A stretch of 64,000 bases of DNA, taken from Euglena gracilis. Lineage: Eukaryota. Below, one piece after another: positions 6,001 through 51,390 of this stretch. The notes beneath the pieces were generated by a model. The model ran no database searches. It was given only the letters and a program-made list of their open reading frames with translations, and had not been told where the DNA came from. The stretch's first letter is position 1, and every line of letters begins with the position of its first letter. Position numbers and translations under genes: made by a program. The stretch is from positions 11,712,716 to 11,776,715 of the forward strand of contig CP154954.1 in the NCBI GenBank assembly GCA_039621445.1, in the 5' to 3' direction.

Positions 6001-9000
6001 AAACGCCAGGTGGTCCCGATGACTGCCGTTCCACCACAATCCCGAATCGTTGCAGGGGGGGGGGGATGCGCTCGCCCGGCCTCAGAAAAAATGCACAAAA
6101 ATGCGCAAAAATGCGCATTTTTGGAAAATTTGAAAAAAAATGCGCAAAAAAAATGCGCAAAAATGCGAAAAAATGTGAATCGCATTCCCCCCCCCTGATC
6201 GTTGCCATGCCCTGGAAGAAACAAAGCAAATGCTCCCTCTCACACAGGGGAAGACGCTGGCAGGGCAGTGGTGATGGTGTCATTGCTGAGGCGGAGGAAG
6301 TCCCGGAAGGAGATGAGGGGCAGATAGCCACGGGTGAAGTCCAAGTCAGACCCTCGCCCCCTGTCTGTCAGAAGCCCCTCTTGAAGTACTTTCCATACGG
6401 CTGTGGTCAAATTTTTGGGGGTCTTGTTCTTCTGGCTGTTGTTTTCCTTGCCCACACCGCCGCGGTTTGAATCACGAATGTGGTATTTGGACTTAATTGC
6501 ATTAACCTGAAAAAACTAATTTGGCTTATTGGTTGAGGATATTTGATCGTTTGTCTAAATTGAGGACCGCATTGGGGATATTTTTTGAGGCAATTTTTGG
6601 GATCTTGAGTTGCGGTTTTGTGATCACCCCAAACAGACTTTTCCATCATGATCGTGCCTGGAATCAAGCACATTTGCATTTGAGCTGGGGGGTGGTATTA
6701 ATGGGCAATTATTTCCAACGTCCCCGACGTTGACGACGAGGTGGGGCCTTGAACTTTAGTATTTTGTTTCTGCATTTTGCCTGGCCGGCGCTTTTGGAGG
6801 AGGGGCTCGATCATAACAGTGCAGGGGGAATTCAGCCCCCCATTCCCCCTGCACGTGATAACCGGTTCGAAAAATGTCGTGGGGGAGAAAACCAAGACAA
6901 AAAAAACGCGTTTCTGGACTGTTTATTTCTTCAAAAAAAAATCCATCCAGAAATGCGTGAAAGCACTTCGAATTCTTCTTGGGTTGGGAAAGTCTCACAC
7001 CCCTCTCTCCCAGCCCATGGGTTGGACTTCCCCGCCACTTTGGTCAATTTTTCCCTTTTAGACTGCATCCACCTGAACTCAGTGCCCATAAACAACCTGG
7101 CCCAGGCCACCTCTCTTTGCCTGGCATGTTGAAATACTTGAATGAATCATCTGTAAGGTTTTTTTAAAAAAAACATTTTCTCCACCTGCATTATACCATC
7201 GAAAATTTCAATGCATCATTCAGATGCCTTTTTTGCGTACAGGACGGAGGGAGAGGCCGTAATACTCCTCCATCTGCAGGAGGTATTTGGCCCCAGTGAA
7301 GCCGTCCATGGCATGGGGCTTGGCAGTCCAGGGCGGGAAAAAGAGAGATCAAGCGCACATAGGGCACCACCACCTACCTTGGTGCCTAAACATGAAAAGT
7401 TTTGGGACGAATGCAAATTCAGGGTTCGGACATCACTTAGATTGAAACGCACGGTGCTGCACACATAAAACGAAAGGTTATGAAAGCGTCAGGAATGCCA
7501 ATAAAATATAACAAAAGGCAAATATCACAAACATCTACATGCTGTAATGATAAAAGCAAAATTGGCAGAGAACACGCAGAAATGTAGACTTCAGTAAAAC
7601 TTTCAAATTTCAGAATACGTACACCTCAGAAAGGCCGATCGCAATGGGGGGAAAGCTTGACGAAAGGGTCGCCGAAAGGCCAATGCGGGTGGACATCCAC
7701 TGGGTCCAGCCGGGGATGCCCTGGATGTTGCTCATCCGGACGTGCGGTACCACCAGCACCAGGCCGAACCGCTCCACGATGGTCCCGGGCACCGCGCCGC
7801 CTGTACCAGACGTGTCAGTCACGCCTGGTCACGCGTGGTCACACGTGGTCACATGCATGGGGGGAGGTGTTGTGGTTACAGTACCTGGGTTTCGACGTGG
7901 AGAGCAGGGACCTGCGACTGCAGATGTTGAGGTGTTCAAATTGCTCATGGCGCACTGTACATTTTTGTGGAATAGAAAAGATGCGGAAATACTGTGAGAA
8001 ACCTATGTATCATGTGATTTATGCATTATATCATTCTTATATTATGTTAAAAATATAAATGTAACGTTGAAACGTTAAAAAAAAAATCAATCATGCCAAA
8101 ATGCAAAAAAAAAAAATGCAAAAACAAAAAAACCAAAAAGAGTTAAATAATCAATCAAATTGAATAACGTTGGTTTTCCCAGTCCAAATTGTGCTGGAAC
8201 AAAATGGCAGCTCGGTGGGTGCAGCATTTTCCACTGTCTTGGTGCCCGTCTGCTGTCGCTCCCATGAGTCCACCAGCAGCACAAAGCGAGGGTTGGGAGG
8301 CAGTGGCTTGCGAGGTGAGACAGCGACCCCCTCCCCACGGCAAACGATGCAAACCTCCATCTGTGGACACCACAAAGACAGCACGCACATGAACAAACTT
8401 TTAGAGGTCCGAATGCATTGTGGTTTGTGTGTGTGTGTTTGTGTGTGTGCATTGTGTGTGCATGGAACCTCACGTGTGCGTGTCTGTGTGTATGTGAGTG
8501 TATTGTGTCTGTCAGACACAATACACTCACATACACACAGACACGCACACGTGAGGTTCCTCACATGTGCGTGTCTGTGTGTATGTGAGTGTATTGTGTC
8601 TGACAGGGAATTTCTTAAGCACCCCGGGGGGGGGGGGGTCCAGCCTCCGGCTGGCAAAAAGGCTGCTGGCTGGATTTGAGCTGCTGGCTGGACCCCCCCC
8701 CGGGGGGTGGGGGGGGAGGGGGGGGTCCGGGGCTGGGGCTGGCTGGGCTGGGCTGGGTCGAGGAAAAACAAAATTTTCTAACACATTTTGGCCATTTTTG
8801 ACATTTTGATGGGTGGAGCTAGATCAAGGCTGGGGGGCTGTGATGGAGGGGCTGTGATGAGGGGGGAAAATGCAGGGATAAGTGAGCTGGACAGCCCAGT
8901 TGGCTGGCCGGCCTGCGGCCGGCTGGCCCGGCCTCCGGCCGGGCTGGACCCGACTTTATTTCACTCGACCCCGGGGGGGGGGGGGCTCCCAGCCCGAATT

Positions 9001-51390: not shown

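Follow-up and report, generated by a model that had tools for sequence, protein, structure and literature searches.

The nonconventional (NC) introns of euglenids are recognised by borders other than GT-AG, a CAG at positions +4 to +6 that pairs with a CTG at -8 to -6, a donor spacer of 3 nt, an acceptor spacer of 5 or sometimes 6 nt, a downstream exon that begins with a purine, and direct repeats at the junctions (Nomura et al. 2025; Milanowski et al. 2014, 2016). Since the 1990s it has been asked where these introns come from and what logic underlies their 3/5 cut geometry. Here we consider a stretch of 64,000 nt of GC-moderate nuclear DNA from Euglena gracilis (assembly GCA_039621445.1, contig CP154954.1, positions 11,712,716 to 11,776,715; hereafter the window), in which a single gene, EG_transcript_763, holds 22 NC introns, beside which stand MITEs (miniature inverted-repeat transposable elements) with the same termini. 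The NC introns of this gene are ordinary members of the euglenid class, without any difference from it. What the locus adds is that the 3 and 5 nt removed outside the paired triplets can be read together as one 8-bp target site duplication (TSD), beside MITEs that carry such duplications, an addition judged against the passages of the NC-intron papers that bear on the question.

The idea that NC introns descend from transposons is not new. A MITE-like origin was proposed from inverted repeats in 2013 (PMC3935182) and appears again in passages of the 2025 E. agilis paper (PMC12501133) and of a paper on diplonemids (PMC12621601), while a 2024 review draws CAG/CTG as a terminal inverted repeat (TIR) and describes TSD-like repeats as frequent at the junctions (PMC11282704). 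A preliminary description of the present locus, made from its sequence alone, had called such an origin a matter of general discussion, and the passages on intron origin in these sources bear that out (PMC3935182, PMC12501133, PMC11282704). A recently gained gapC intron is reported with eight-nucleotide direct repeats, taken there as the trace of double-strand break (DSB) repair, and the same source describes purines at intron and exon starts and pyrimidines at exon and intron ends (Milanowski et al. 2016, PMC4770533). This is the same Y|R preference at both junctions, a symmetry that a TSD would produce. The splicing code has been written as 5'-N3CDG-/-CH'GN5-6|R, with a strict N3 donor and an acceptor at which N5 is preferred, one further nucleotide tolerated and two only weakly so; in the same passages 69.1% of E. 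agilis NC introns are 'slidable' via direct repeats and were excluded from motif work (Nomura et al. 2025, PMC12501133). The MITE origin and the 8-nt junction repeat are thus already in print, but the equation of 3+5 with a TSD, the name of a superfamily and free copies with the same ends were not found in the passages on the subject or in searches of the main text of open-access PMC and bioRxiv papers. Previous grounds for a MITE origin consisted of inverted repeats and 'TSD-like' junction repeats alone; the result described here gives the idea a quantitative and falsifiable form, namely that the removed flank equals one 8-bp TSD.

A second system for comparison is that of the introners of Micromonas and Aureococcus (Huff et al. 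2016, via PMC11282704). As that review outlines them in the relevant passages, introners too are non-autonomous TIR elements that insert into exons with a TSD; RNA processing takes out the element and one TSD equivalent along with it, which restores the coding sequence. They differ in being spliceosomal, one of the two splice sites lying within the element while the other is made in a 3-nt TSD, and in forming large families whose copies are near-identical. At the Euglena locus removal is non-GT-AG and would be helix-dependent, the TSD would be 8 bp long, and the cuts would fall outside the element, by 3 nt on one side and 5 nt on the other.

Of the 22 NC introns, 11 take the strict form exon|N3-CAG...CTG-N5|R in transcript orientation; for these minus-strand introns this reads N5-CAG...CTG-N3 on the plus strand. 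Every one of the 11 is followed by an exon that starts with a purine and preceded by an exon that ends with a pyrimidine. Two others keep N3 and N5 around a changed triplet (CAA/TTG, a compensatory change, and CAT/CTG), and in these 13 introns, strict and variant together, the flank removed beyond the terminal triplets is exactly 8 nt (Table 1).

Altogether 32 introns were mapped in the gene, 10 of them GT-AG and 22 NC. Reads from four runs (two contig runs presumed to be RNA, a raw RNA-seq run and a DNA contig run) were placed on its repeat-free part, 17480-35176, whereas at 35-51 kb the basis is protein anchoring, in which all donor/acceptor pairs that reproduce the EG_transcript_763 protein across each exon pair of the 5' half of the gene were enumerated. 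Each of the 15 joints listed, besides which there are 133 further ones, is found in all three RNA runs and is missing from the DNA run. Ten are CT..AC on the plus strand, that is, GT..AG on the transcript strand, and five are nonconventional, with ends such as CA..CA and AC..CT on the transcript strand in place of GT/GC-AG. For the NC introns as a whole the evidence is five RNA joints, two loose ends of transcript contigs that continue elsewhere in the window, and 15 cases of protein anchoring, comprising four introns of the preliminary description and 11 more, none of them slidable to GT-AG. All seven junctions that the description had inferred proved right, three by RNA joints and four, in both length and position, by protein anchoring, and its coordinates and counts were all confirmed.

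The same description had suggested scanning for an excess of identity between the k nucleotides before the CAG and the k nucleotides after the CTG, and in this one gene such an excess is present and specific to the k=8 register. Taken 5' to 3' along the gene, the 11 strict introns match at 6, 6, 2, 3, 7, 2, 2, 6, 1, 3 and 1 of 8 positions, a mean identity of 0.443 against 0.342 in cross-pairs among introns, which served as the control; that background is itself raised by the Y|R shared at positions 5 and 6. At other values of k the observed identity (0.21-0.37) follows the cross-pair value, and the only peak is at k=8. At least six of eight positions agree in 4 of the 11 introns and in 1 of 110 cross-pairs. 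With 100,000 permutations of the 8-mer partners, p is 0.0235 for the sum of matches and 0.0002 for four or more introns at six or above; adding the two introns with variant triplets (2/8 and 5/8; n=13) gives 0.020 for the sum and 0.000125 for the high scorers. The four introns for which the preliminary description had claimed a repeat are exactly these high scorers, and the three for which it had denied one score 2, 1 and 2 (33180-34285, 27643-28258 and 40742-40995). None of the high scorers is a copy of another, and their lengths and sequences differ.

The distribution of mismatches within the four repeat-bearing introns is also informative. In three of them the 8-mer at the spliced junction equals the upstream copy exactly, and in three N3 is identical to the first three bases of the downstream exon. 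Matches amount to 11/12 in N3 and 14/20 in the intronic N5, where mismatches concentrate. That the mRNA junction equals the upstream copy is as expected if selection holds the exon halves while the intron halves drift. One junction in the repetitive coding part, GGT CGC|GAC GAC TAT, restores the unit CGC GAC GAC TAC; the neighbouring exon has this unit without interruption.

Four MITEs with recognisable flanks lie in the window, and the three reported previously stand with the coordinates and TSDs then given (8/8, 7/8 and 7/8). The fourth, 32036-32332, is homologous to 38871-39133 from end to end, CAGGG to CCCTG, in an alignment in which the flanks are unrelated; these two and the related copies are true mobile-element copies. 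A partial relative of MITE 47550-47855 lies at 33299-33404. For the four MITEs together, flank identity reaches 0.875 (28/32) at k=8, and no other k between 2 and 14 gives more than 0.43. The elements had been called free, which holds for 8604-9084, outside the mapped gene; the other three of the four are nested in larger NC introns and are not intergenic, so that they count as free only insofar as none of them is itself what is spliced out. A blind count of TIR plus TSD is powerless in 64 kb, and the case for MITEs with CAG termini rests on the individual elements.

Taken together, these observations are best accounted for by an insertion mechanism that we hold with moderate confidence. MITEs with CAGG...CCTG termini, still recognisable at this E. 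gracilis locus, would insert with an 8-bp TSD. Once such an element had inserted into an exon at a site NNNNY|RNN, pairing of its termini would form the helix that the euglenid NC splicing system reads; cuts by that system 3 nt before the CAG and 5 nt after the CTG would remove the element, 3 nt from the end of the upstream TSD copy and 5 nt from the start of the downstream one. Since 3+5 nt is one TSD equivalent, the mRNA would be restored to its pre-insertion sequence. Exonic insertions would hence be tolerated and persist as NC introns; the intronic TSD halves would drift later, so that old introns keep the 3+5 geometry and lose the repeat, and introns could also grow by nested MITE insertion. 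If true, this would explain why the cuts follow a 3+5 rule and why Y|R is mirrored at the junctions, and would show how a genome may load its exons with transposons and take no harm. The junctions, the 3+5 geometry, the MITE termini with their 8-bp TSDs and the k=8-specific repeat in four or five introns are observations; from them we infer that the introns arose by transposition and that one class of element lies behind introns and free MITEs. Published genomes could be used to test the equation of 3+5 with a TSD directly, above all with the slidable introns left out of earlier motif work.

Several points weigh against this account. Seven of the 11 strict introns score 3/8 or less, and all the introns come from one gene whose exons are GC-rich and partly repetitive. 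Three CAG/CTG introns remove 9-10 nt (two N3+N6, one N3+N7), in five more the ends form helices while CAG/CTG is absent from the N3/N5 register, and one of the 22 carries no geometry call, the stretch 39622-40651 being left unplaced. The introns have terminal inverted repeats of only 6-9 nt, those of the MITEs being 12-17 nt or longer. None of the introns is a complete copy of any MITE family that occurs in the window, and near-identical intron families shared with non-genic elements were not seen there. The DNA run contains no empty-site allele at any of the 15 joints listed. In the blind scan, CAG...CTG with a good TIR and at most one TSD mismatch gave 2 matches, no enrichment over other trinucleotide heads (0-4). 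The preliminary reading of NC introns as a MITE plus one TSD agrees with published facts obtained independently and is consequently supported for some introns, the minority with a k=8 repeat in one gene, but not shown for most; the equation of the removed flank with one TSD likewise fits the 13 introns with exactly 8 nt and not the three with 9-10 nt or the five without register. That most NC introns are of MITE origin, that free MITEs and introns form one class, and that this class is hAT are not established.

Two of the exceptional introns deserve separate mention. Intron 34420-35759 has an inverted repeat, CCGcCCAGGCGGGG (13/14), that reaches its very ends, and in intron 48008-48557 a long inverted repeat, CCCCGCCGGCGCCTGG/CCAGGCGCCGGGGGG, runs to the intron ends. 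Both lie outside the published N3/N5-6 code, a hint of a second geometry class.

The alternative that survives best, though we think it unlikely, is a coincidence of numbers: the 3+5 spacing would be set by the architecture of the NC splicing enzyme, the repeats would stem from staggered DSB repair (the proposal of Milanowski et al. 2016), intron sliding or selection for similar contexts at the two cuts, and the MITEs would be unrelated elements with a common TIR start. The absence of a repeat in most strict introns, the flank totals of 9 and 10 and the five introns without the motif in register all suit it, as do the Y|R constraints that lift background identity to 0.34 and the reading of the 8-nt repeat as DSB repair in passages of PMC4770533. 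So does the comparison of ends. Counted over both ends of the 11 strict introns, CAG is the start of all 22 termini, CAGG of 21 and CAGGG of 12; BLAST of the terminal 70-mers of introns against those of MITEs found, beyond CAGG(G), only G/C runs in common. One 12-nt motif, CAGGGCTGGATG, goes somewhat further: it stands at the 5' end of intron 28340-29117, a copy that differs at one position lies in intron 50938-51306, 6 nt inward from its 5' CAG, and three other loci have the motif too, five matches where 0.67 are expected and where 0 of 100 shuffles reached five. The similarity of intron and MITE ends that had been anticipated thus amounts to CAGG(G) and this motif, and to nothing further. 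Coincidence, however, explains the flanks poorly. The excess is found within introns and not in cross-pairs, of which one in 110 reaches six, so a common consensus cannot be its source, and it is confined to the k=8 register. Neither a constant 8 nt nor CAG/CTG termini would be expected from DSB repair, and the same window has elements with those termini and 8-bp TSDs.

The terminal 12-mer of a possible MITE of 686 bp at 4383-5068 is the same as the 12-mer at the 5' end of NC intron 28340-29117. This candidate starts CAGGGCTGGATG, ends CCAGCCCTG, has a 9-nt terminal helix and is flanked by ggcaagca/cgcataca (5/8).

A further alternative keeps the transposon and changes its name. A hAT-like superfamily for MITEs and introns is a lead drawn from the termini, not a finding. 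The MITEs share with hAT MITEs an 8-bp TSD, seen in their 0.875 identity at k=8, and short TIRs starting CAGGG or CAGAG. Six of eight MITE termini begin CAGGG and two CAGA; seven (six CAGGG, one CAGAG) fit YARNG, the hAT consensus, and the eighth, CAGAT, does not. On the other hand no autonomous partner was seen in the window, and no transposase domain of any kind (Pfam) was found in its nine longest open reading frames (ORFs), the search being confined to the window. That the elements belong instead to Merlin, with its IS1595-like DDE transposases, or to another superfamily with 8-bp TSDs is somewhat more doubtful still than coincidence. A literature search on hAT transposase in Euglena returned a single paper, PMC8101967; its relevant passages name no Euglena hAT and describe, among the DNA transposons of this species, two Merlin families, whose DDE motif is conserved and whose TSDs are 8 bp long. 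Merlin TIRs, by the description in those passages, end in 5'-GG-3', whereas all eight MITE termini here start CAG directly adjoining the TSD. The earlier hAT-like label accordingly keeps its 8-bp TSD, with hAT itself unproven, no transposase having been found and Merlin elements with 8-bp TSDs being reported from E. gracilis.

The reverse direction, in which MITE-like repeats would derive from NC introns via reverse-transcribed circular intron RNA or reverse splicing, is highly improbable even though NC introns are described as released as full-length circular RNAs (in passages of PMC11282704) and as often gained, with gains visible within species (in passages of PMC4770533), since a mobile intron RNA would carry N3/N5 whereas the free elements start at CAG and end at CTG with the 8-mer outside, and since N3/N5 copy local exon sequence in the repeat-bearing introns, which a cut-and-paste TSD gives and RNA reinsertion does not.

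The proposal that NC introns arise by MITE insertion and lose one TSD equivalent on splicing has a wider and much more tentative extension, whose truth we rather doubt: NC splicing may be a genome-wide, RNA-level eraser of one class of DNA transposon, most NC introns (which make up 71.8% of introns in E. agilis) being former CAGG...CCTG MITEs and the cut offsets being fixed by TSD length. Were this so, the Y|R preference at the two junctions would be the TSD seen twice, no larger system that turns transposons into introns would be known, nor any other that bypasses the spliceosome, and the excising enzyme might be co-evolved with, or derived from, the transposon.

Table 1. Gene, introns and elements mapped in the window (window coordinates; fractions are matching positions between the two flanking 8-mers)
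Feature	Position	Strand	Geometry or termini	Flank identity	Basis and remarks
DBC1/LAIKA-domain protein gene, 1195 aa	17030..51390	-			ATG at 51390; last coding block 17030-17080
NC intron	50938..51306	-	strict	6/8	Protein-anchored, length 369; 8-mers CCCACGGC/CCCCCAGC; 5' end motif CAGGGCT(AGGGCT)GGATG
NC intron	48642..50829	-	N3-CAG...CTG-N6		Protein-anchored; flank total 9 nt
NC intron	48008..48557	-	no CAG/CTG in register		Protein-anchored
NC intron	47176..47924	-	no CAG/CTG in register		Protein-anchored
NC intron	46553..47042	-	no CAG/CTG in register		Protein-anchored
NC intron	45720..46520	-	no CAG/CTG in register		Protein-anchored
NC intron	45304..45630	-	no CAG/CTG in register		Protein-anchored
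NC intron	44564..45238	-	strict	6/8	Protein-anchored, length 675; 8-mers ACGACAGC/CCGCCAGC
NC intron	43209..44491	-	strict	2/8	Protein-anchored
NC intron	41999..43172	-	strict	3/8	Protein-anchored
NC intron	41134..41887	-	strict	7/8	Protein-anchored, length 754; 8-mers GTCGCGAC/GGCGCGAC
NC intron	40742..40995	-	strict	2/8	Protein-anchored, length 254
NC intron	38779..39490	-	N3-CAT...CTG-N5	2/8	Protein-anchored
NC intron	37167..37825	-	N3-CAA...TTG-N5	5/8	Last 5 nt of exon = last 5 nt of intron (GCCGC)
NC intron	34420..35759	-	N3-CAG...CTG-N7		Loose end 34421 -> 35762, defining 34422-35761; flank total 10 nt
NC intron	33180..34285	-	strict	2/8	RNA joint matching to the base, no sliding
NC intron	31926..33065	-	N3-CAG...CTG-N6		RNA joint, read as 31925-33064, beyond the preliminary description; flank total 9 nt
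NC intron	28340..29117	-	strict	6/8	RNA joint 28336>29115 (28337-29114), 4-nt sliding range; 8-mers GCGACGGA/CCGCCGGA; 5' end CAGGGCTGGATG
NC intron	27643..28258	-	strict	1/8	RNA joint matching to the base, no sliding
NC intron, 3960 nt	17761..21720	-	strict after 1-nt slide	3/8	RNA joint, read as 17760-21719, beyond the preliminary description; slide within its 2-nt ambiguity
NC intron	17081..17634	-	strict after 1-nt slide	1/8	Loose end 17634 -> 17050-17079, defining 17080-17633
Conventional intron	31104..31810	-	GT-AG		RNA joint
Conventional intron	30387..31018	-	GT-AG		RNA joint
Conventional intron	29188..30337	-	GT-AG		RNA joint
Conventional intron	26687..27428	-	GT-AG		RNA joint
Conventional intron	25517..26578	-	GT-AG		RNA joint
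Conventional intron	24816..25426	-	GT-AG		RNA joint
Conventional intron	24312..24645	-	GT-AG		RNA joint
Conventional intron	23701..24193	-	GT-AG		RNA joint
Conventional intron	23096..23642	-	GT-AG		RNA joint
Conventional intron	21786..23018	-	GT-AG		RNA joint
MITE, 481 bp	8604..9084		perfect 17-nt TIR CAGGGAATTTCTTAAGC	7/8	Flanks gtgtctga/gtgtctgt; outside mapped gene
MITE, 38871-39133 family	32036..32332			6/8	Flanks ttaccacc/tgaccaac; nested in NC intron 31926-33065; absent from the preliminary description
MITE, 263 bp	38871..39133		CAGGGC...CCCCTG	8/8	TSD gcacagag on both sides; nested in NC intron 38779-39490
Degraded third copy of 38871 family	39755..39975		termini eroded		No TSD
MITE, 306 bp	47550..47855		CAGATA...CCTCTG	7/8	Flanks gcagggac/gcggggac; nested in NC intron 47176-47924

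The gene that contains every intron named in the preliminary description spans about 34 kb on the minus strand and is the Euglena gracilis eukprot entry EG_transcript_763, the one protein in a large collection to match exon 40996-41133 (minus strand) at 100% identity over its full length; it has the Pfam domains DBC1 and LAIKA. Its limits were set by chaining exact words of the protein along the minus strand, the first residues falling at 51390 and the last at 17030. Six-frame ORF lists and the set of all helices of at least 7 nt were too noisy for defining genes or elements. A codon-usage scan trained on the exons of EG_transcript_763 found no second gene in the window, which consequently offers no independent gene for replication. 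Residues 485-507 and 538-586 of the protein match nothing anywhere in the window, and residues 376-416 are diverged or frame-shifted relative to the genome at 39491-39621; given these unplaced protein stretches, the map lacks a few introns in the interval 35.9-40.6 kb. Genome and transcript differ at 27476, where the RNA contigs are 15 nt shorter than the genome, and at 38644-38778, 39491-39621 and 35877-38575, and the genome copy has fewer GKGKGKGD units than the transcript. Allelic copies, paralogous copies or assembly gaps could each lie behind such differences.

Other repeats in the window differ from the MITEs described above. A TIR element of about 1.45 kb at 10199-11646 has a 37-nt inverted repeat, 92% complementary, that starts TTAGGCGGCCGGATTCGCACTTAAGC; as this start is not CAG, the window holds more than one kind of DNA transposon. 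Two overlapping near-perfect palindromes of 48 nt (100% and 98% complementary), rich in TG/CA, occupy 8464-8606 and abut the left end of the MITE at 8604. A very high-copy repeat with the motifs TGACAGTTTCCCGGG and CCTGACAGGT lies at 31463-31600, 33800-33860, 36230-36450 and 37000-37040, in conventional and NC introns alike; word depth in the DNA run sums to 212,187 for its bin, where the least repeated bins have about 30-50, and many loose read ends fall at 31501 and 31533.

The two kinds of intron are partitioned along the gene. The ten conventional GT-AG introns are all found in its 3' part, between 21.8 and 31.8 kb; from 33.2 kb up to the start codon the mapped introns are without exception NC, and this NC-only part contains the low-complexity DYGGKGGRD and GKGKGKGD coding repeats.

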